NCBI GenBank assembly: GCA_951406725.2
Contig: OX597829.1
Location: 5,456,001-5,520,000 of the forward strand
Reading direction: 5' to 3'
Length of the DNA stretch: 64,000 nucleotides
From: Octopus vulgaris
Lineage: Eukaryota
Notes under the pieces: generated by a model
Database searches by the model: none
What the model was told of the DNA's origin: nothing
What the model saw: the letters and a program-made list of their open reading frames with translations, nothing else
Position numbers and translations under genes: made by a program
Shown: positions 1 through 64,000 of the stretch, piece after piece
How positions within the stretch are numbered: the first letter of the stretch is position 1
Layout: each line of letters begins with the position of its first letter

Positions 1-335
1 TGGTAGTCGGAGCTTCAGGTACTGTTACCATCTTAGTGACTAAAAGACCGAACGTTGCCTACATGTTACACTAGCATCCAGTTCAATAATAGGCTAATTG
101 GATCTCAATAAAAATTCATAATGTACCCCTTATCCCATGGGCGTTTGGTGAATTATATGATGAAATTAGAAAGTTTCAAAAAGTGTGACGTAGTAACAGA
201 GGGAAAGGTAGCAACAGAAAGAGGATGATTTATATCAGTGAAGGCGAGAACGACGGTGGAAATGGGATGGTAACATTAATAAAACTGTCATATACAGGTG
301 ATGTTACAGGTATACTTTCGTAAATACATAGATAC

Positions 336-374
<39 letters not shown>

Positions 375-473
375 AGGGGGTGTGAGAAATACGTAGCTTT
401 AAGGAGAGAGGGGATAAATAGCTTTTCTGCTGTCCAACGCCAAGAACCATTCACATACAGACACACACACACA

Positions 474-513
<40 letters not shown>

Positions 514-877
514 TATATGTGTGTGTGTGTATGCATACTTACATACGTACATACATACATATGTCTGCTACACATCATTTTAAACTCCTGATTTCCTGTG
601 TGTCCGTTTGTAAGATGTGTGTGTGTGATTCCCATTGAATCATTTAAATTATACTAAACGTGCAACGGAGGAATTCCTTACGAATATCCTGCAACGAAAC
701 TGCAGTATAGCGGATGATGCCTGGTAGCCGTAAGTGGTGAAAGTACACTTAAGACACGCTGCTAGTTCCATGCCCAAAGCAAGTTTGGATTTACATTTTA
801 AAGTCTCCTATCTAAACTTTAATTTTAAATAGAGCATGTACATATAACGAAGCGATAGCGCGAAGCAGTGTTTAGGT

Positions 878-1207
878 ATGAGCAGAATTTAGGCTAGTTG
901 AAATATACAGTTCTATATTTAAGCGATGACGAATTATGTACATTATTTACATTATTTACATTTGACGGATATTTGTCCTCATCTTGTTTGTTGTTAACAC
1001 AACGTTTCGGTTGATATACCCTCCAGCCTTCATCAGGTGTCTTGGGGATATTTCGCATTTGGGTTCTCATTCCTAACGTATTTTTCGATTGCTGTTATTA
1101 TTATTATTGTTGTTGTTGTTGTTGTTGTTATTCAGGTCATTACCTGGAATCGAACTCGGAATCTTGGGGCTAGTAGCCCGCGCTCTTAATCACTACGCCA
1201 TACGCCC
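878..1207 (-). mobile_element. tRNA-headed, hammerhead-containing short non-autonomous retroelement (family H1)
   Basis: Minus strand reads GGGCGTA-TGGCGTAGTGA (A-box-like)...GAGTTCGATTCC (B-box), then (TAA/CAA)n, a linker, a hammerhead motif and a (GTAAATAAT)n tail. Related body copies at 1222-1340(+), 19860-19978(-) and 63730-63881(+). Confidence 0.8.
996..1041 (-). ncRNA. Minimal type-I hammerhead ribozyme motif (family H1)
   Basis: GACAC CUGAUGA A GGCUG[GAGGGUAUAU]CAACC GAAA CG UU GUGUU. Stem I GACAC/GUGUU, stem II with one mismatch, palindromic ACGU stem III, GUU triplet. Confidence 0.8.
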
Positions 1208-1234
1208 GTGGGCAATTAAGGAAATTTTCCCCAA

Positions 1235-1280
1235 GACACCTGATGAAGGCTTGAGGGTATATCTGCCGAAACGTTGTGTT
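1235..1280 (+). ncRNA. Minimal type-I hammerhead ribozyme motif (family H1, inverted copy)
   Basis: GACAC CUGAUGA A GGC...GCC GAAA CG UU GUGUU. Lies in 1222-1340, an inverted partial copy of 940-1055. Confidence 0.8.
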
Positions 1281-1461
1281 AACAACAAACAAGATGAGGA
1301 CAAATATTCATCAAATGTAAATAATGTAAATAATGTAAATATGTTTCTGACATATTTCAATTGCTAAAAGACATTACATTGCAGTTACCGTGGAAGATAT
1401 CTCCTATGATAAAACGCTGTGAAAAATCGTTTTTACGTTCAGTATCTGCCTCTATTAGGAA

Positions 1462-1508
1462 TCTCAGACATAGATGTTTCGAGACTATTCCCGCTCTCAT
1501 CAATGAAA
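1462..1508 (-). ncRNA. Type-I hammerhead ribozyme motif, C3U core variant (family H2)
   Basis: UUUCA UUGAUGA GAG[CGGGAAUAGU]CUC GAAA CAU CU AUG UC UGAGA. All three stems pair; GUC triplet. Confidence 0.7.
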
Positions 1509-1742
1509 TGTACCTAAGAGAGGTAACTCTGAACGAACTAAGAGACCTATTGGTTTACGTATAATCCAGTCAATACATTGACTGATTTATGTTAGTAGAT
1601 CGCCCGTGATAAATAACGAAACGTTAACACCAAGTTGTGTTTATTTATCATAAGAGAGATATATTCTCCACGGTGACTGAGGGCATTTACCATTTAGCAG
1701 TTGAAATATGTTTGTGACGTATTTCAACTAGCCTAAACTCTG

Positions 1743-1822
<80 letters not shown>

Positions 1823-1823
1823 A

Positions 1824-2006
1824 CGAAAAGACAAAAGACGAAGACAGGTGGTGTACAAAACAAACAGATGTATTAGTATAACGCTCAGGAATTGAAAAAA
1901 GTCTTTTACGTTTCGAGCCTACGCTCTTCTACAGAAAGGGACACCGAAAAAAGCAAGGAGAGAAACAAGGAGAGAAAAAAATGTGTGTAGTGGCTACCGA
2001 TCTATC
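1824..2006 (-). mobile_element. Short dispersed repeat carrying a hammerhead-like motif (family H3)
   Basis: Homologous to 29311-29493 (aaaagacgaagac.ggt...aaacagatgtattagt.taacgctc...cttttacgtttcgag). Confidence 0.75.
1903..1938 (-). ncRNA. Minimal hammerhead-like motif with A6U core (family H3)
   Basis: CUUU CUGUAGA A GAGC[GUAG]GCUC GAAA CG UA AAAG. Perfect stems I and II, palindromic ACGU stem III, GUA triplet. Confidence 0.7.
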
Positions 2007-2093
2007 ATGGTGACTGCCGGACAGAAGGGTCCTTTAGGTAAAGTTCAAAGGTTTTGATGTCGTGGTGTATTGCAAGGATATATATATATACTG

Positions 2094-2166
<73 letters not shown>

Positions 2167-2452
2167 GTGTGTGTGTAAGGATTTACTATGGTCAAGGCTG
2201 CGTGGCATTCGATTATAAATAAATAAAATGGAAATTGCACATTGTGTATAGGACATCACCAACGAGTCAGAAATACGTAAACGCACGAAGTAGGGAGTAA
2301 TAAACAGTCCGACAACTGATGAGCGAGTTATCTTCTTTTGGTATTTTCTCCTCTACTTTTCTCTCGTGTGTTTACGTATTTTTCACTTGTTGGTGAAGTT
2401 CTGTGCACGATGTGTATTTTCATTCTCTCTCTCTTTCTTTTCTCTCTCTCTC

Positions 2453-2508
<56 letters not shown>

Positions 2509-2551
2509 TAAATAAATGGAGTTGAACGCAGATGCTATTCAAATTCTTTTA

Positions 2552-2634
2552 CTTTCGACATATGTTTCGAAGATAACATTGGTTTTATTCCAAAGGAATA
2601 AACGGTGTAAAATTCAATCTTCTCATCAGGAAAG
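2552..2634 (-). ncRNA. Type-I hammerhead ribozyme motif, canonical core, long stem II (family H4)
   Basis: CUUUC CUGAUGA GAAGAU...AUCUUC GAAA CAUAUG UC GAAAG. Perfect stems, palindromic ACAUAUGU stem III, GUC triplet, internal hairpin UUUAUUCC/GGAAUAAA in loop II. Confidence 0.85.
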
Positions 2635-2811
2635 AAAGAGAACCGATCTTAACAACAAGACATTATACTACACAAATTACTGCACATTAACCTGGAGTTT
2701 CTACCGTTGAATAGATCGCTACATCCTTGTTACTTGCGTGAATTTTGCTACCCTGGTGACTGTTTATTGAATTTTCCATGTTAACGGTAAACAAAGGATA
2801 ATTCATTCATC

Positions 2812-2860
<49 letters not shown>

Positions 2861-2865
<5 letters not shown>

Positions 2866-3140
2866 TTAGAGACAAAACCACTATTAACTTAAAATTGAAT
2901 AGAAGATCTGAATACCACCTGATGAATGTCCTTAGAAGAGACACGAAACAATTGTAGTGGCGAATTTAATTTTATTTAATTTATATAAAATTTTTTATGT
3001 ATTGGATTAAGTCTTTCCTTGTTTGATTTGCATAATAGTGGTTTTGTCTCTAATTAATATTATATAATATTTTACTATAAAATTGGAATCAGTCCTAAAT
3101 CTGATTTTTCCCTGTAAATTTGGATTTATTCCCTAATATT
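2861..3140 (+). mobile_element. AT-rich fold-back element containing a hammerhead (family H5)
   Basis: Inverted repeats attaattagagacaaaaccactatta (2861-2886) and taatagtggttttgtctctaattaat (3033-3058). A related copy lacking the ribozyme is at 12380-12595. Confidence 0.7.
2915..2960 (+). ncRNA. Type-I hammerhead ribozyme motif (family H5)
   Basis: CCAC CUGAUGA A UGUC...GACA C GAAA CAAUUG UA GUGG. Palindromic ACAAUUGU stem III, GUA triplet. Confidence 0.8.
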
Positions 3141-3178
3141 TATTATTATTTATATATATATATATATATAATAAAAAT

Positions 3179-3296
<118 letters not shown>

Positions 3297-3310
3297 GTAA
3301 TAATAAATTA

Positions 3311-3936
3311 TATTATCTCTGGCTGCCCAGTCCTGGCTAAGAAGGAATATATTCACAGACATGACAGAGTTGGAACCTACATACACTGGAAGCTATGCCA
3401 ACATTATGGAATAACAACAGAAAAAAGATGGTTTAGGAACACACCAGAAAAGGTCACGGAAAACGAGAAAGCAACCATACTCTGGGATATGCCGATACAC
3501 ACAGATAGAGAAATTAAGGCCAACAGACCAGATATAGTTGTCAGAGATCATGAAGAAAAAAAATGCTTTCTAATTGATGTATCAATACCGGCACATGACA
3601 ACGTGTCTCTAAAAGAAATGGAGAAACTTTCAAAATACAAAGACCTGGAAATAGAGGTAACCAGAATGTGGAATCTAAAAACAGAAACAATTCCTATCAT
3701 AGTAGGTGCATTAGGCATGATAAAAAAATATTCAGACAAATACATAACAAAAACTCCAGGACTTACAAACACATATAACATACAGAAAATTGCACTACTA
3801 GGCACTGCACACATCCTACGCAGAACACTTTCCATACAATAACCATCAAAGCATCACAACAAATCACAGCACATACCCAAGGCACACAGAGCTGCGCTCG
3901 GTAGTGAAGTGAAAGCACGATATAAAAATAAAACTA

Positions 3937-3940
<4 letters not shown>
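3311..3940 (+). mobile_element. 5'-truncated R4/Dong-like non-LTR retrotransposon (restriction-like endonuclease C-terminus plus 3' UTR) inserted in (TAA)n
   Basis: ORF 3120-3842 after the poly-I artefact: GCPVLAKKEYIHRHD...ILWD...NRPDIVV...LIDVSIP...KLSKYKDL...PIIVGALG (PD..D nuclease motif). Flanked on both sides by (TAA)n. Confidence 0.9.
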
Positions 3941-4023
<83 letters not shown>

Positions 4024-4120
4024 TTGAGGAAATATTATTCCTAACTTACAGGGAAAAATTCAATTTAGAACAACTAAATCAAATTTCACAAAATATAATA
4101 TATATATAAAAATTAGAAAG

Positions 4121-4320
4121 AAACACCTTTTAACAATTCAAAATGAACAATTAAATTACATCATCTTGAAAATTACATATAATAGAAATATAAAATATGA
4201 AATAACAATAATATACCGATGATTAAGTAATGTACAAAATAATAAATAAAACGTATATATATGTAATTTTCTAGATCTTGTAATTTAATTGTTCATTTTG
4301 AATTGATAAAAGGTGTTTTT
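4121..4320. repeat. AT-rich inverted repeat with about 60-bp arms
   Basis: aaacaccttttaacaattcaaaatgaacaattaaattaca versus tgtaatttaattgttcattttgaattgataaaaggtgttt. Confidence 0.75.
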
Positions 4321-4357
4321 TTTGTAAGTTATATATATATATACACACACACATAGT

Positions 4358-4604
4358 CTTTATTTGTTTCAGTCATTAGACTACGGCCATGCTGGGGTAC
4401 AGCCTTGAAGTTTTAGTCGAATAAATCGGCCCTAGTACATCCTTTCTAAGTCTGGTATTTATTCTATCGGTCTCTATTGCCGAAGCGCTATGTTACGGAG
4501 ACGCAAATACAGCAACACCGGTTGTCAAGCGGTAGTGGGGAGACAAAGAGAGTCACAACGACACATACACACACATCCTCACACACACACACACACAAAC
4601 ATAC

Positions 4605-4646
<42 letters not shown>

Positions 4647-4796
4647 GAATGCTTCTTTCAGTTTCCGTCAACCAAATCCACTGCTAAAGCTTTGGTGGGC
4701 CCGAGGCTACAGAAGACACTCTCCCTAGGTGTCATGCAGTAGGACTGAACCCAGAATTATGTGGATGGGAAATAAGTTGCAGGCACACCCGCACCT
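4358..4796 (-). mobile_element. tRNA-derived SINE family A, diverged copy
   Basis: Diverged match to the 24609-25023 copy, including the internal (TA)n(TG)n tract and the cagcatggcc...gactgaaacaa tail. Confidence 0.85.
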
Positions 4797-4842
4797 TACA
4801 CACACACATACACACACACATACACACACACATACACACACG

Positions 4843-4893
<51 letters not shown>

Positions 4894-4902
4894 TTTTTTT
4901 TT

Positions 4903-5291
4903 TTTACTTGTTTCAGTCATTTTGACTGCGGCCGTGCTGGAGCACCGCCTTTTAGTCGAGCAACTCGACCCCGGGACTTATTCTTTTTGTAAGCCCAGTA
5001 CTTATTCTATCGGTCTCTTTTGCCGAACCGCTAAGTGACAGGGACGTAAACACACCAGCATCGGTTGTCAAGCAATGCTAGGGGGACAAACACAGACACA
5101 CAAACACACACACGCATATAAACATATATACGACGGGCTTCTTTCAGTTTCCGTCTACCAAATCCACTCACAAGGCTTTGGTCGGCCCGAGGCTATAGTA
5201 GAAGACACTTGTCCAAGGTGCCACGCAGTGGGACTGAACCCGGAACCATGTGGTTGGTAAAGAAGCTACTTACCACACAGCCACTCCTGCG

Positions 5292-5293
<2 letters not shown>
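4903..5293 (-). mobile_element. tRNA-derived SINE family A, full length
   Basis: Head GGCGCAGGAGTGGCTGTGTGG...GGTTCAGTCCC (A/B boxes), body, and tail GGCGGTGCTCCAGCACGGCCGCAGTCAAAATGACTGAAACAAGTAAA. Confidence 0.92.
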
Positions 5294-5340
<47 letters not shown>

Positions 5341-6027
5341 GGAGAGGGGGGAGAGAGAAGGAAAGAGAGGGAAAGCTAGAGATTAAGACAGACAGCGGGA
5401 GAGACGGCCAGACAGAAAAACAGACAGACAGATGGACTGGAAGATAGGCATGGATGAATGGAGGGAGGGAGGGAAGGGCGGAGAGAGGGAGGGGAGTTTT
5501 TAATTGATATTTTCTGATTTGCATAATAGTGTGTGTTTCGTATTAGTAAAGTAACGCTCCCAAGATAAAAGAAAATACACACACACATGCACACACACAC
5601 ACACACACACACAAAGGCAGACAAACAGATTAATAATATGTTAGGTAGATAGATCTATGGGTACATGGACAGCCAGTTAGGCACTGAGTTCATTCAAAAA
5701 TGTTAAATATTTAGAACTTGTTCGAGAAAGACAAACTACAATTTGTTTGGGACAGTTATTTTGGGGACATGGCATCATTCCAAGTATTGCAAGATTAATG
5801 GATAGTTAGTAAGCCCTAGGTGCCAATCATTTGTACTGTTTCTGCAAAGGTCACCCAACATATTGCGATGACAGTCGGTAGATGTCAGAGCGTTAAGAAC
5901 TGTGTTAAGATCACTTAGGGCGACCTTTCAGTATATTCAGCGTTTAGGGACTGCTGATTTTGTTGCTATCACTAGGTGTGTGTGTGTGTGTGTGTATTTA
6001 TAAATATATTTAATTTATATACCTATA

Positions 6028-6029
<2 letters not shown>

Positions 6030-6081
<52 letters not shown>

Positions 6082-6140
6082 CACATACATGCCTGCATAC
6101 ATACATACGTTAAATACGTATATTTTCAAACATACATACA

Positions 6141-6186
<46 letters not shown>

Positions 6187-6245
6187 CACATACATGCCTG
6201 CATACATACATACATTAAATACGTATATTTTCAAACATACATACA

Positions 6246-6291
<46 letters not shown>

Positions 6292-6360
6292 CACATACAT
6301 ACCTGCATACATACATACATTAAATACGTATATTTTCAAACATACATACAATTTCATATA
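6030..6360. repeat. Three tandem copies of a roughly 105-110 bp unit containing (TA)n
   Basis: ttacacatacat.cctgcatacatacatac.ttaaatacgtatattttcaaacatacatacaatttcat occurs three times, separated by (AT)n. Confidence 0.9.
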
Positions 6361-6549
6361 CCCACATACAAACACACGCGTGCACGACACACACACTATA
6401 ATTATAAGTATTTTAAACACATTTCTCTCTCTCTCTTTCTCTATCTGTAAGCACACACAAACACTCACATAAACATACTTATCTCTCTCTCTCACCCTCC
6501 CCTTCCTCCTCCTCTTTCTTTCTCTCTCTCTATATATATGTATATATAT

Positions 6550-6932
6550 ATATATATATACACATACATACATACATACATACATGCATACGTACGTACG
6601 CACATACATACGCACATACAAAAATACATACATATGTACATATATACATATATACATACATACGTAAATGCATAGATACATACATACATACATACATACA
6701 TACATGCATACATACATACATACATACATACATGCATACATATATACATGCATACATACATGCATACATACATGCATACATACATACATGCATACATACA
6801 TGCATACATACACACATACATACATACATACATACATACATACATACATACATACATACATACATACATACATACATACATACATACATACATACATACA
6901 TACATACATACATACATACATACATACATACA

Positions 6933-6966
<34 letters not shown>

Positions 6967-7164
6967 CATACATACATACATACATACATACATACATACA
7001 TACATACATACATACATACATACATACATACATACATACATACATACATGCATACATATATACATGCATACATACATACATACATACATGCATACATACA
7101 TACATGCATGCATACATACATACATACATACATACATACATACATACATACATACATACATGCA

Positions 7165-7198
<34 letters not shown>

Positions 7199-7318
7199 CA
7201 TGCATACATACATGCATACATACATGCATACATACATACATGCATACATACATACATACATACATACATACATACATACATACATACATACATACATACA
7301 TGCATACATATATACATA
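6550..7318. repeat. (CATA)n microsatellite array
   Basis: Seen directly; produces the artefactual MYVC/HTYI ORFs. Confidence 0.97.
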
Positions 7319-7585
7319 ATGTTGCTGTTTCGTGTGGAAATCTAGGCGAGCGGGGTCACAATCGCCACCGTGCTAACAAAGATTAACAATGGTTTAAACA
7401 TTTTGGAGCCATTTATTTTCTACTCGTACGCAACATCGTGCAGGTGTACTGCGTGTATATACAAATATATGGCAAGTGTACGGTAGACTACAAAATAAGT
7501 AATATAGAAAATAAGACAAACATGAATACAAAAAATTATTTGAACAGGTTTTGACCGATATTTAGCTTCCTGATATACAACTTTC

Positions 7586-8275
7586 GGATCTTTTCGGTTT
7601 GAACGGCAGTTTTTTTCTAGCGGCGTCATATGAAATTGTCACCCATAATCATGACCCTAGAATCGATCTATTGCATTTCAATCTTTTTACAGATAGAGAA
7701 AGAGAGAGAGAGAAATGTGTTTAAAATACTTATAATTATAGTGTGTGCGTCGTGCACGCGTATGTTTGTATGTGGGTATATAAAATTGTATGTATGTTTA
7801 ATTGATATTTTCTGATTTGTGTAATAGTGTGTGTTTCGTATTAGTAAAGTAACGCTCCCAAGATAAAAGAAAACACACACACACACACACGCACACACAC
7901 ACACAAAGGCAGACAAACAGATTAATAATATGTTAGGTAGATAGATCTATGGGTACATAGACAGCCAGTTAGGGGTGGGGAGAAGGGTATCTTTTTTTCT
8001 TCACAAATGTAAAAAACCCAATCTGTTTCTTAAACGAGGAACATATTCATACGGGACAGAATGTTTTTTTTTCCCTCAATAGACGTCAGTGATTGGTTGA
8101 AATTGCAGAAATTGAAGAAAAAAAAGCAACAAATATCTTACAGACTATAGAATTTTCTCAATAAAGCCAAGAGAAAAAGATGTTTTATAAACACATTCTA
8201 CCAGTATACGAAGTTTAAAAGTGTTTAGTTACGTGGAAATTATGTTAAAAACTGCCGTTCAAACCGAAAAGATCC
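7586..8275. mobile_element. Non-autonomous TIR DNA transposon (MITE), Merlin-like
   Basis: TIRs ggatcttttcggtttgaacggcagttttt / aaaaactgccgttcaaaccgaaaagatcc with an exact 8-bp TSD caactttc (7578-7585 and 8276-8283). GG termini plus an 8-bp TSD fit Merlin/IS1016. Confidence 0.85.
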
Positions 8276-8477
8276 CAACTTTCTTCTAACAAAGTTTTAT
8301 TACAAAATACATTCAACATGTATATTATGACTGACGCACACGCGGGCGAAAAGTAGCGAACGAGGAGACAAAAATGTCGGCTATACTGAAACATACATGG
8401 ATATACGATTATCTACACAACGTTATATGTCTCCGGTTAATGTAAGGAAAATAACTAGATATATTTAAACTATCACC

Positions 8478-8805
8478 TTGCACCTTGGGCAAGTGTCTTC
8501 TACTATAGCCTCGGACCGACCAAAGCCTTGTGAGTGGATTTGGGAGACGGAAACTGAAAGAAGCCCGTAATATATATGTATGTATATACATGTATGTGTG
8601 TGTATATGTTAGTGTGTTTGTTCCCCTAACATCGCTTGACAACCGATGCTGGTGTGTTTACGTCCCCGTTACATAGCGGTTCGGCAAATGGGATCGATAG
8701 AATAAGTACTAGGCTTACAAAGAATAAGTCCTGGGGTCGATTTCCTCGACTAAAGGCAGTGCTCCAGCATGGCCACAGTCACATGACTGAAACAAGTAAA
8801 AAGTA
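8478..8805 (+). mobile_element. SINE family A, 5'-truncated
   Basis: Starts at gcaccttgggcaagtgtcttc and ends at gactgaaacaagtaaaa. Confidence 0.9.
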
Positions 8806-9117
8806 AAAAAAAAAATAAACAAAAAAAAGTATCATACAAAGACTTTGTCGGTTCACCATTCCAGAAGCAGGAGAAAATTGATGGCACCGGTACAAAGCCA
8901 CGTTCGCAGTAAGATGAAATAACCAAAGAAGAAGAACATTCAGGGATGACAGAGGGTTTTCTGAGATATAGACGGACACAAGAAGGGACACCAGACCTTT
9001 TTTTCTGAAAACGAAACAATCTCGATACTAGATTCTAGAACTGGAAGTGACTCATTTCTGTCAAGACGTCAAAACTAATACAAAATAGTAATACGGCAGA
9101 CATATAGTTGGAGATAA

Positions 9118-11320: not shown

Positions 11321-12378
11321 GTAACAATGAAGGGTGAAATTAATTAATTTGGAACAATTATCAATTACACCAAGTAGTCTTCGGCATGTAAAAGCCTCAT
11401 TCGAGGAAAATTTAAGTAATACTAAGCAATTAAGGGTTTAGCAACGAATTGCCTTACCACACACCGAATTTAGAAATAGCAGTCAAAGAGATTATAGCTA
11501 TTTCTTCTACTAAAAGGGAGATCACAGTAAAGGCACAGCATTTGAAAGGCAAACACAAACAGGTAAAAGAGAATGAATTAACGGCAATCTATCATACAGT
11601 TTTAAGTCACCTACGGACGTACGTTTCGAGATCAAGTCTTAGGAAAGCATAAGAATTAGATAACTCTACTTTACCCAGACTTCTTCTTTCATCAGCGCAT
11701 GATACTAACAATCATGAATGATTGAATATTGAATTTTGAGATACTAGAAGGCACAAACTCAACTCAGTATCAGAGCGAGCTAGAAGCCACAGCTAGTATC
11801 ACCAAATTCAAAGTATGAATGAAAGCTTGTGTCACCAGTCCCTTCCCACCCGCGTGTAGCCAAGACAAAGTGCTGTGGTCATTTACTGGGATGAATATGG
11901 TTTATGAGTAACAATGAAGGGTGAAATTAATTAATTTGGAACAATTATCAATTACACCAAGTAGTCTTCGGCATGTAAAAGCCTCATTCGAGGAAAATTT
12001 AAGTAATACTAAGCAATTAAGGGTTTAGCAACGAATTGCCTTACCACACACCGAATTTAGAAATAGCAGTCAAAGAGATTATAGCTATTTCTTCTACTAA
12101 AAGGGAGTGGGTAAAGTAGAGTTATCTAATTCTTATGCTTTCCTAAGACTTGATCTCGAAACGTACGTCCGTAGGTGACTTAAAACTGTATGATAGATTG
12201 CCGTTAATTCATTCTCTTTTACCTGTTTGTGTTTGCCTTTCAAATGCTGTGCCTTTACTGTGATCTCCCTTTTAGTAGAAGAAATAGCTATAATCTCTTT
12301 GACTGCTATTTCTAAATTCGGTGTGTGGTAAGGCAATTCGTTGCTAAACCCTTAATTGCTTAGTATTACTTAAATTTT
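11321..12378 (-). mobile_element. Hammerhead-bearing element with direct and inverted partial copies (family H6; Penelope pLTR-like architecture)
   Basis: 11321-11520 equals 11908-12107 (200-bp direct repeat). 12108-12378 is the reverse complement of 11407-11677, and the two 67-aa ORF translations are identical. A diverged family member lies at about 43993-44182. Confidence 0.75.
11612..11699 (-). ncRNA. Type-I hammerhead ribozyme motif with long stem II (family H6)
   Basis: UGCG CUGAUGA AAGA..AAGUCUGGG...CCUAAGACUU..UCUC GAAA CGUACG UC CGUA. Palindromic ACGUACGU stem III, GUC triplet. Confidence 0.78.
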
Positions 12379-12646
12379 TATTAAATTAGAGATAAAACCA
12401 CTATTATTTTGAATTTTTTAAAAATATTTTTTAATTGATTTTTTACTATGTATTGGTTTATGATTTTTCACTGTTTGATTTGCCTAATAGTGGTTTTATC
12501 TCTAATTTAATATAATATATATATTTATACTATAAAATTAGATGTAATCCTAAATCTAATTTTTCCCTGTAAGTTTGGATTTACTCCCTAATATTATTAT
12601 TATTAAATAAATATATATATATGTACGTATGTATGCATGTATGTAT

Positions 12647-19859: not shown

Positions 19860-19978
19860 ATGTTTTCATTATTTACATTATTTACAACTGACGGATATTT
19901 GTCCACATCTTGTTTGTTGTTAACACAACGTTTCGGCTGATATACCCTCCAGCCTTCTTGAGGTGTCTTGGGGAAATT
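19860..19978 (-). mobile_element. Family H1 fragment with a mutated hammerhead core
   Basis: GACAC CUCAAGA A GGCUG..CAGCC GAAA CG UU GUGUU at 19922-19967; core G5 is changed to C. Confidence 0.8.
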
Positions 19979-32454: not shown

Positions 32455-32760
32455 TAAATATAATATGTGATAATTATTCGGTAGCCATGATAGAACCCCC
32501 CGTTTCGGATGCCGAGGTGGAAATCCACGCCGCCATCTCTTCAGTTATCCGACCATCGGAAAAATGCTATGAAAAATGATCGTTATACAAAGGGAAATTA
32601 CTGTGTGATTGCTGTGTGACTCCCTTTGTATAACGGTCATTTTTCATTGCATTTTTCCGGTGGCTGGGTAACTGAAGAGATAGCGGCGGGGATTTCTCCC
32701 TCGGCATCCGAAACTCGGAGTTTTATCATGGCTACCGAATAATTTTCACATATTACATTT
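32455..32760. repeat. Fold-back element with about 140-bp arms, each containing a hammerhead-like motif (family H7)
   Basis: attattcggtagccatgata...cgttatacaaaggga versus tccctttgtataacg...tatcatggctaccgaataat. Confidence 0.88.
32667..32727 (+). ncRNA. Hammerhead motif (family H7); mirror copy at 32489-32550 on the minus strand
   Basis: GGUAA CUGAAGA GAU...AUC C GAAA CUCGGAG UU UUAUC. Stem I GGUAA/UUAUC, near-palindromic stem III. Confidence 0.65.
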
Positions 32761-33074: not shown

Positions 33075-33698
33075 TGTATGTATGTATGTATGTATATATG
33101 TATATATGCATATATGGGCACATAACATCACAAAACGTAAACAACACGAAACACGCAAACTTTTTTGCGAACAACGTGAGAAACAAATGGAAAATAAGAC
33201 AAGTAACATAAAGAACGACCCTTCATCAGTTGTCGGCTGTTTATTCACTCCATATTTCGAGCAATTCACTACAATATGTGCCTTCGAGAAAACAGTCGCA
33301 AACCAAAATGAAATTTGGGATTTTGCGGATGGGCAAAGTTAGTAACAAAAACAGAACAGTGAAACAAATAGTGAGGGCTGCTAAGCCAGAAGGGGCAAGG
33401 TGGCGAACGCTGAGGAAGATTCTTTGACAAGCGAAAAGATAGGAGAGGAGACAGACAAGAATAAGTCTGGTCTGTGAAGCAGACAGGAAGAAAAGACAGA
33501 TGAAGACGTGTGGTAAAAAAAAGATGAACGATGGTCATGTGTGAGCAACGAGAGAGTAAAGGAGAAAGGGGTAGAGAGAGAGGGATGGACAGAGAGAAAA
33601 CAGAAGGGGAGAAAAAAGAATCAGAGAAAACAGTACAGAGGAGAGTCGCATCAAATTTAAGATAAAATTACGTGGAAATGGATGCGTGGCGTTCAATC

Positions 33699-34540: not shown

Positions 34541-35148
34541 TAGAAAAAAAAAAGGCTAACAAATTTTTTTATAGTGGATCAGTCAATACTAAAACGTCTA
34601 ATTATACGTTTTTTTTTTCTTTTTTTTGTTTTTTGTTTTTTGTTTTGGTCCTTCACATCCGTGTCCATACTATTCCGAAATTAAGAACCGAAATTTACAC
34701 GGAAATAAAACAATGATACTATGTGAAAGGTATCCCAGGCTGATACGTTTTTCGCAAAATACACAAAAAATTTATTCAAAAAGTCTTGATATCCAACTGA
34801 GCTCACAATTTTTTTTTTTTTTTCGGTAACCAGTAGAAAGAAATCTTTAGTGGTTTCGTATACCGCTGACTTATAAATTGTACATATCCACTCGTCACAT
34901 TTCGTTTCTTTGTATGAATCCAAATCTAAAGATATTGATTTCAAATTTTGGCACAAAACCAGCAGGTTTGGGAGAATAGTTCAGTCCTTTAAATCGACTT
35001 CAGTGTTCAACTGGTACTTATTTTGTCGACCCCGAGAGGATGAAAAAATAAGGTGGGCACCGTCGTGCTGACAATTCTGCCAGCTCACCGCCTTTAAAAA
35101 TCTGAAGATATTAAAACTACTCTCATACAAAGGCTTAATTTGTTATAA

Positions 35149-44276: not shown

Positions 44277-45143
<867 letters not shown>

Positions 45144-62864: not shown

Positions 62865-63571
62865 AAAGCACTAAGAACAAAATATGTAAAAAACAGAATT
62901 GACAACACATCAGAAAGTGATAAGTGCAGAACCTGTGGACAAAGTGGTAAAACCGTATGGCATATTACCAGTCAATGTACACCACTAGCCCAGAAGGAAT
63001 GTAAGAGAGGCCACGACAATATAGCAAGGCTTATCCATTGGACATTCTGCAACAAGTATGGACTTGACAGAGCAAAGAATTGGTACGACCACAAACCTGA
63101 ATGCATCGATGAAAATAGAAATGCAAAGATCCTATAGGATTTTATGATTCAGTGCGATCATGAGATGGAGAATAGGAGACCAGACATAGTCTTAATTGAG
63201 AAAGAAAACAAACTATGCTGGATCATAGATATAGCATGCCCAGCTGATGAAAAGGTATGCGATAAGGAAAAAAGAAAAGTCGAGAGATATGACAGGTTAG
63301 CTTGGGAAGTTAAGCAGTTGTGGTCGATGAAAAAGGTAGCAGTAGTACCAATAATTGTCGGAGCCCTGGGAACAGTGAGCAAAAATCTCGAGAAGTACGT
63401 GGAACAAATAGGGGCTGCAATAAGGGTGGAGCACTTGCAGAAAACAGCACTGCTTGGAACCGCTCGAATACTCCGGAAGGTGCTCGAAAAATAAGAGGTG
63501 TTACCTTAGTTCACTGGTAGTGAACAGCTGATAACGTAGTACATCTCCAGCGTTAGAAGCTGTGCAAAGGC
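62865..63571 (+). mobile_element. 5'-truncated R4/Dong-like LINE in (TAA)n
   Basis: KALRTKYVK..DKCRTCG..TVWHITSQC...RRPDIVLI..IIDIACP..PIIVGALG..LLGTARILRKVL; 3' UTR then (TAA)n. Confidence 0.9.
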
Positions 63572-63581
63572 AATAATAATG

Positions 63582-63708
<127 letters not shown>

Positions 63709-63781
63709 CAACAATAATAACAACAACAACAACATCGAAAAATACCTTAGGAATGAGAATCCATGTTCGAAATTTCTCGAA

Positions 63782-63827
63782 GACACCTGATGAAGGCTGG
63801 AGGGTATATCAGCTGAAATGTTGTGTT
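63782..63827 (+). ncRNA. Hammerhead motif in a family H1 body (63730-63881)
   Basis: GACAC CUGAUGA A GGCUG..CAGCU GAAA UG UU GUGUU; two C-to-T changes at CpG positions relative to the other copies. Confidence 0.7.
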
Positions 63828-64000
63828 AACAACAAACAAGATGAGGACAAATATCCGTCAAATGTAAATAATGTAAATAATGAAGAAGAAGAAGAATCCT
63901 TTCTATTATATGAAGAAGGCCTGAAATTCTGGAGAGGGCGGTAGTCGATTGCACCGACCCCAGGGCACAACTGGTGCTTATTTTATCGATTACCATAATG

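Follow-up and report, generated by a model that had tools for sequence, protein, structure and literature searches.

The double-hammerhead model of ribozyme cleavage is established. Minimal hammerheads have been reported by the thousand per animal genome, in many families and mostly as single truncated ends of Penelope-like elements (PLEs), and in that work monomers remained uncleaved while dimers were cleaved weakly (PMC4209133). A dimer model is restated, with Lunse et al. cited for dimer cleavage by PLE hammerheads, in an account of SINE-like hammerhead elements of Schistosoma (PMC6765202). Non-coding animal retrozymes have been argued to derive from the end repeats (pLTRs) of PLEs (10.64898/2026.07.22.740005), and a mechanism for the tails of PLE insertions has been described (PMC11167929). 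Here and below, comparisons with published work refer to the available portions of the sources cited. A literature search combining octopus and hammerhead returned no description of the motifs considered here, and neither "ribozyme" nor "hammerhead" occurs in the available main text of a paper on the repeats of O. vulgaris, whose supplementary repeat library may differ (PMC13282606).

The window analyzed here is a 64-kb stretch of the Octopus vulgaris genome (OX597829.1, positions 5,456,001–5,520,000; assembly of 2.8 Gb in 227 contigs), in which a sequence-only reading had pointed to six hammerhead motifs within 2 kb. A descriptor scan bears this out, with a type-I hammerhead parse obtained for six of the six at the expected places (Table 1). 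Our preferred explanation, to which we assign a probability of about 90%, is that these are minimal type-I hammerheads within the pLTRs of five PLE families (H1 to H5), carried by truncated and partly inverted insertions and likely to cut RNA only as same-family pairs. Each motif is a member of a dispersed repeat family, the first-look candidates for H1 to H5 numbering 6758, 855, 4053, 2788, and 965, respectively, with 40 scored for each. The locus is a densely packed instance of something already in print, namely PLE pLTR hammerheads, which Rfam models miss. As with the minimal hammerheads of PMC4209133, the motifs are of type I with a stem I of 4–6 bp, an extra base at 9/10.1, a palindromic stem III and a U3-A8 variant, and they come from many unrelated families, mostly as single truncated copies, with opposite-strand pairs 100–700 bp apart; they differ from that set in having palindromes of up to 12 nt, A6U in H3 and A·C at 10.1-11.1 in H5. 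The insertions resemble endonuclease PLEs in having a reverse transcriptase with C-terminal GIY-YIG, pLTRs and AT-rich targets (10.1101/2021.04.23.441226; PMC11167929), as well as in their 5' truncation, inverted adjacent copy and tail at one end (10.1101/2021.04.23.441226). They depart from the described Penelope/Poseidon and Neptune elements in the tRNA-like segment of the H1 3' UTR and in the length of the H4 tail, 152 nt as against 30–40 bp.

Table 1. Features of the 2-kb cluster (positions in the window; clade labels presumptive).
Feature	Positions	Strand	Evidence or remarks
H2 element 3' tail, split off by H1 insertion	840–906	-	match to 3' end of H2 copies
Target-site duplication AAATAT around H1, copy 1	901–906	+	sequence; copy 2 at 1337–1342
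H1 main arm: 5'-truncated 3' end of Penelope/Poseidon-like PLE	907–1222	-	
H1 hammerhead (minimal, type I) with an additional A after A9 and an ACGU palindrome; cleavage predicted after U17	996–1041	-	
H1 tRNA-Arg-like segment	1136–1207	-	A-box-like 1200–1190 (one change in window copy), B-box-like 1155–1146
H1 inverted arm, more truncated, without tail	1223–1336	+	94.7% identical to 935–1048 reversed
Second H1 hammerhead (inverted arm)	1235–1280	+	
H2 body, old family, apparently non-coding	1337–1745	-	70–79% identity to other copies; inverted terminal piece ~1644–1745
H2 hammerhead, UUGAUGA, stem III ACAUCUAUGU	1461–1509	-	U3·G8, one palindrome change in window copy
(TA)n(GA)n microsatellite separating H2 from H3	1748–1819	.	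sequence
H3 pLTR of autonomous PLE family (Neptune-like)	1820–2031	-	adjoins (TA)n(GA)n run
H3 hammerhead, CUGUAGA-A, family-wide A6U, ACGU palindrome, A17	1903–1938	-	
H4 truncated 3' end of coding PLE	2507–2814	-	2507–2667 plus inverted tail 2663–2814; (TA)n run each side
H4 hammerhead, CUGAUGA, canonical core, long stem II, ACAUAUGU palindrome, C17	2552–2634	-	
H5 young short element, apparently non-coding, fixed 5' end	2848–3150	+	92–99% identity; short inverted piece 2848–2886; between (TA)n runs
H5 hammerhead, CUGAUGA, ACAAUUGU palindrome, A17	2915–2960	+	family-wide A·C replaces G10.1-C11.1

A single H1 insertion holds the motifs at 996 and 1235, one in each of its arms, so that the insertions number five rather than six; the families are five, as originally claimed. 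H1 (907–1336) is nested in H2 (840–1745), where it is flanked by a 6-bp target duplication, and its main arm comprises the tRNA-like segment, (AAC/AAT)n, the pLTR with its hammerhead and a one-sided tail. Inverted arms are present in 23 of 40 H1 insertions and also in H2, H4, and H5, with tails at one end; none was seen at the window copy of H3. The inverted piece in H4 is the 152-nt 3' tail of the family, placed on the 5' side, and the (TA)n run at 2815–2862 is common to H4 and H5, each of which has another on its outer side. Under the PLE explanation, all of these insertions would have been made by PLE reverse transcriptase/GIY-YIG proteins at AT-rich and microsatellite sites.

Comparison with dinucleotide-shuffled controls, a check proposed along with the initial claims, shows that motif density in the window far exceeds that of shuffled sequence. 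The strict descriptor produced four matches in the window relative to a mean of 0.07 (maximum 1) in 30 block-wise dinucleotide shuffles, and a descriptor allowing one mismatch together with a short self-complementary stem III produced eight, relative to 0.23 (maximum 2) in as many shuffles of the same kind, although one of the eight, at 35098, is probably a chance match. A family-based count returned exactly 12 motifs (at 1.0, 1.2, 1.5, 1.9, 2.6, 2.9, 11.6, 19.9, 29.4, 32.5, 32.7, and 63.8 kb), in agreement with the dozen or so per 64 kb noted previously and at the same places. A coincidental origin of the six motifs in AT-rich repetitive sequence might be argued from Rfam, which returned no match in the 64 kb at gathering score and, for positions 1–4000 at E ≤ 10, 46 matches with no hammerhead family among them. 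It might also be argued from the folding of the monomers, which is unremarkable for all six (z from -1.8 to +0.3 relative to shuffles). However, ordinary folding is expected for motifs without a stable stem III, and the ACGU self-duplex amounts to only -1.7 kcal/mol. Chance is refuted by the excess over shuffles, both in the window and in a genome sample (34 matches vs. 1–2), and by the conservation of the H3 motif, whose variation is restricted to tolerated positions; the motif is also fixed in family majorities, and we consider the probability of this reading negligible.

Both H1 motifs (GACAC, CUGAUGA-A, ACGU, and U17) and the H4 motif have a canonical core, while the remaining three of the six depart from it: H2 by U3·G8 and a broken palindrome, H3 by A6U and H5 by the mismatch at 10.1-11.1. 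A self-complementary or nearly self-complementary stem III had been claimed for all six motifs, and the palindrome is perfect in five. The exception, the H2 copy, carries one change, and the majority of its family has both U3-A8 and the perfect palindrome ACAUCGAUGU. Across families the palindrome spans 4–12 nt and is variable in sequence, yet self-complementary.

Three of the families, H1, H3, and H4, are those of protein-coding PLEs, of which truncated 3' ends remain at this site. The evidence is most complete for H3, for which a GIY-YIG-like frame was identified 800 nt upstream of the motif at one locus (L053). A search with this endonuclease frame gave 15,915 candidates, of which 150 were scored and 30 loci fetched, and the H3 pLTR lies downstream of the endonuclease in 27 of the 30. 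A complete H3 unit, pLTR-ORF-pLTR and carrying RVT_1, occurs at one locus (L171), H3 being the only family in which we saw a pLTR on both sides. The reverse transcriptase frame with C-terminal GIY-YIG is complete in H3, and the protein had no match among solved structures. At least 23 of 29 leader-bearing H1 copies have at least 149 nt of upstream coding sequence in common, and the upstream frames contain an endonuclease C-terminus and a reverse transcriptase (RVT_1, E = 4e-4), all frames in the three long H1 loci being broken. For H4, an endonuclease-like frame lies upstream in 9 of 29 loci, and its Atlas match, at 0.95, is to a cluster in which 11% of the members are GIY-YIG; none of the H4 loci read has an intact full-length ORF. 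A Pfam scan of the H1 and H4 endonuclease frames gave no GIY-YIG match, and the pairwise match between H1 and H3 is weak (E = 0.052). Based on the layout of their motifs, we take H1 to be Penelope/Poseidon-like and H3 to be Neptune-like.

H2 and H5, by contrast, look non-coding and are read here as non-autonomous. The sequence-only reading had regarded the elements as non-autonomous in general, which holds for these two families but not for H1, H3, and H4, where reverse transcriptase or GIY-YIG frames occur upstream in other copies. No coding partner was identified in the loci read for either family, and no tandem array of hammerhead units occurs among the 29 H2 and ~45 H5 loci read. H5 copies have a sharp start ~45 nt upstream of the core, and those read show no continuation into a shared coding region; the query used for their 5' end is itself palindromic and consequently favored inverted pairs. 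In H2 copies the 3' end is rejoined to the 5' start in a head-to-tail junction. We suggest that both families would borrow PLE proteins. In this they resemble metazoan non-LTR retrozymes, short non-coding type-I units proposed to ride on PLEs (10.64898/2026.07.22.740005; PMC7229834), from which they differ in being dispersed single or inverted units without long tandem arrays.

The 72-nt tRNA-like segment of H1, hereafter its head, lies ~35 nt past the stop codon and has words resembling the A- and B-box consensus at tRNA spacing. Compared with 25 distinct host tRNAs, it aligns best to Arg(TCG), with 47 identities (z = 6.7). It falls below the thresholds of ARAGORN and Rfam and is called by neither; ARAGORN also found no tRNA gene in the 64-kb window, with relaxed thresholds giving mostly noise. 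We determined the 5' ends of 40 H1 insertions that had been selected on their 3' part or met by chance, after dropping edge-cut and pLTR-less pieces: 24 begin within -25 to +20 of the head, with 13 starting downstream of this interval and 3 upstream, a pile-up at the head with a rate ratio of 10.5 relative to elsewhere (p = 2e-12). A TTTT run is absent from the sense strand of all six full head-to-tail copies, which are non-independent, as against 21% of random 300-nt windows. From these sequence features we judge it roughly an even chance that the head is a working Pol III promoter whose 300-nt RNA is copied by the PLE enzyme, in which case most H1 copies, the one in the window among them, would be SINE-like offshoots. 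The pile-up could instead result from reverse-transcriptase stalling or fold-back, as a small hairpin (TGCCC-AC-GGGCA) coincides with it.

A further alternative would have H1 originate as an independent tRNA SINE, one that acquired a PLE tail later and was never part of a coding PLE. This would account for 37 of the 40 copies, chosen on their 3' part, being without coding sequence, for the 24 that start at the head, and for one related head that has no hammerhead tail (L201). However, in at least 23 of the 29 leader-bearing copies the head, (AAT)n and pLTR come immediately after a PLE stop codon, contigs of sequencing runs X17–X19, whose kind we guessed, bridge the H1 ORF and the head, and the window copy itself retains ~20 nt of leader between stop codon and head, leading us to consider this origin doubtful. 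Contigs of runs that we guess to be RNA also contain H1 family sequence and are uninformative as to strand, level, or ends.

SINEs normally partner LINEs. Octopus tRNA-derived SINEs were reportedly described by Ohshima and Okada in 1994, with OR1 and OR2 said to be of tRNA-Arg origin, and H1 would be like these elements in its tRNA-Arg-like head and its abundance. A literature search for named octopus SINEs returned nothing, and one for a tRNA promoter located in the 3' UTR of a PLE found no paper in the open literature, Repbase and Dfam being outside its scope. H1 also shares with the Schistosoma elements a short repeat in which a Pol III-type promoter is followed by a hammerhead, whereas the Schistosoma elements carry cleaving tandem hammerheads and H1 is dispersed, inverted, PLE-tailed and situated within a coding PLE (PMC6765202). 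A broader and more tentative scenario, which we place slightly below even odds, is that a tRNA-Arg Pol III promoter was acquired by the coding element H1 immediately behind its stop codon and that H1 sheds a 300-nt hammerhead RNA retrotransposed by its own enzyme, making it a SINE born inside a PLE and outnumbering its parent, and that a dozen or more hammerhead families are kept apart by palindrome and stem I "dimer codes," the commonest of them using an A6U core. The possible promoter capture by H1 and the core variant of H3 carry the interest of the locus, and the former, if correctly read, could surprise specialists.

To place the cluster in its genomic context, 76 evenly spaced 10-kb stretches (759,900 bases) were scanned with the descriptor, giving 34 matches relative to 1, 1, and 2 in three shuffles. 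With a library of families, 88 stretches (879,900 nt) contained 49 motifs, or 42 without one tandem array, corresponding to ~3.6 motifs per 64 kb; as the library was built partly from the window, the window is favored and the genome figure is a lower bound. Both results uphold the proposal of a large and diverse population of ribozyme-bearing elements. Extrapolation gives ~150,000 motifs genome-wide, compared to 2,000–9,000 descriptor hits per genome obtained by different methods in PMC4209133, and with motifs this numerous the 2 kb examined here represents a local pile-up in microsatellites. At least five insertions per 2 kb has a Poisson probability of 6e-8, although the window was chosen for this property, and 60 of the 88 stretches are empty. 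Nesting and microsatellite targeting account for the sites in the pile-up. The preference for (TA)n-rich sites proposed earlier is seen overall, as (TA)6+ is found within 300 nt for 25 of 38 sampled copies compared to 30% of random positions, but is family-specific and not general (14 of 16 H3-type copies, none of six H1 copies). A genome with motifs on the order of 100,000, in many families, would be a natural panel for studying the role of weak PLE hammerheads, including their dimer rules, A6U, and palindrome length.

The sequence-only reading had further proposed that any pre-mRNA crossing the region would contain several potential self-cleavage sites. Active cis-acting sites affecting a host transcript would be consistent with the number of motifs on each strand of the 2 kb (four minus, two plus), with the fully canonical core of H4 and with a local density above the Poisson expectation. 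Yet published monomers of the same type were not cleaved (PMC4209133), the ACGU self-duplex is weak and the monomers fold either in an ordinary manner or not as hammerheads, and the pile-up has the explanation given above. Pairing in stem I amounts to 4–6 bp within a family and 0–3 bp between families, on which basis we rejected heterodimers across families. Within the 2 kb, one family alone is represented twice, by the two H1 motifs, and these are on opposite strands. As a same-family, same-strand partner is probably needed and none is available within 2 kb, a pre-mRNA passing through is unlikely to be cleaved, and we regard the cis-acting reading as highly improbable. A scan of 150 of 160 candidate frames also identified no host exon and only two matches, both to retroelements; short exons would escape such a scan, and the region may therefore still be intronic. 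According to the dimer explanation we prefer, two same-family copies in a tandem transcript would pair via the stem III palindrome, forming a swapped dimer with both stem III and stem I probably made between the partners, after which the RNA would be cut. The ribozyme would in this way serve its source element by trimming tandem RNA, and the copies at the 2-kb site would be dead fragments in neutral decay.

Family alignments, in which preferential conservation of core and stems had been anticipated, gave different outcomes for H1 and H3. In 36 H1 copies the frequency of mismatch is 9.7% in the core (35/360), 9.2% in the stems and 8.0% in the flanks (207/2584). This lack of contrast is in keeping with neutral decay from a single source and by itself lends no support. 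Among 62 H3-type copies selected without regard to the motif, non-CpG positions differ from the majority in 3.5% of cases in the core (22/620) and 4.8% in the stems (42/868), compared to 11.8% in the flanks (485/4108) and 33% at free positions (62/186). Natural A6C variants are known to cleave slowly (PMC3088659; PMC7151607), A6C at <0.1 per min (PMC3088659), while our literature search found no A6U as a natural variant; A6U and the families described here may already stand in the supplements of PMC4209133 or PMC13282606. Slower cleavage is expected of H3, which is without A6, and of H5, which is without G10.1-C11.1. The family-wide A6U of H3 nevertheless appears to have been retained under selection, judging from the alignment: position 6 is U in 58 of the 59 listed cores and A in none, and N17 is A in 42 copies, U in 12, C in 5, and G in 0.

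The 2-kb cluster of truncated Penelope-like element (PLE) insertions contains a sixth PLE-type insertion beyond those listed in the sequence-only reading, and the window copy of this element is without the cleavage strand. The S-G-C strand order was found in four of 19 loci related to it, with stems III and I of 4–6 bp and a stem II that is not adjacent, an arrangement that resembles type SGC of PMC10085705. A related permuted-order motif lies in another element copy in the window; its pairings are weaker and it failed the S-G-C scan.

Two further hammerhead families were observed in the window, one of them as an inverted pair with six additional copies in the sample of evenly spaced genome stretches, all close to (TA)n, and the other with intact copies at L177 and L214. 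Elsewhere in the genome, seven identical, canonical-looking type-I hammerheads (ACCGGU) are spaced at ~359 nt in a series that contains a strand switch and forms a retrozyme-like tandem array. Also frequent in the genome sample is a family resembling H3 (the pLTR of a coding PLE), with the core CCGACGA (U4C) and the ACGU palindrome.

Features in the window and at other loci of the genome
Feature	Position	Strand	Detail
Sixth PLE-type insertion	2184-2456	+	core word at 2317-2323
Permuted-order motif	33200-33300	-	
Inverted hammerhead pair	32481-32735		stem III short hairpin-type
Second further family	11595-11710	-	palindrome ACGUACGU, long stem II
Hammerhead series	L175:2272-4550		G000:C1:20.00 Mb
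H3-like family	L002:3192-3226, L193, L217, L222, L236, L239, L244		
H5-related fragment	12379-12622		83% alike to 2968-3169
LINE-like 3' end with H1 copy	63138-63882		
Similar LINE-like ends	~3300-4023, 44332-44781		
H1 copy	19869-19978	-	core mutated
tRNA-like head	L201:5609-5700		

An older fragment related to H5 (a short non-coding element) is also present, and the hammerhead motif is absent from its aligned part. At one LINE-like 3' end, the start of a copy of H1 (a PLE 3' end with a tRNA-Arg-like head) falls within the (AAT)n tail. For the similar LINE-like ends in the window Pfam gave no match; by their motif, they are probably of the restriction-like endonuclease type. In the core-mutated H1 copy the pLTR appears to adjoin the leader directly, which would be consistent with deletion of the tRNA-like head. 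A head related to that of H1, followed by (AAT)n without the hammerhead tail, occurs at L201 and is possibly an older relative.
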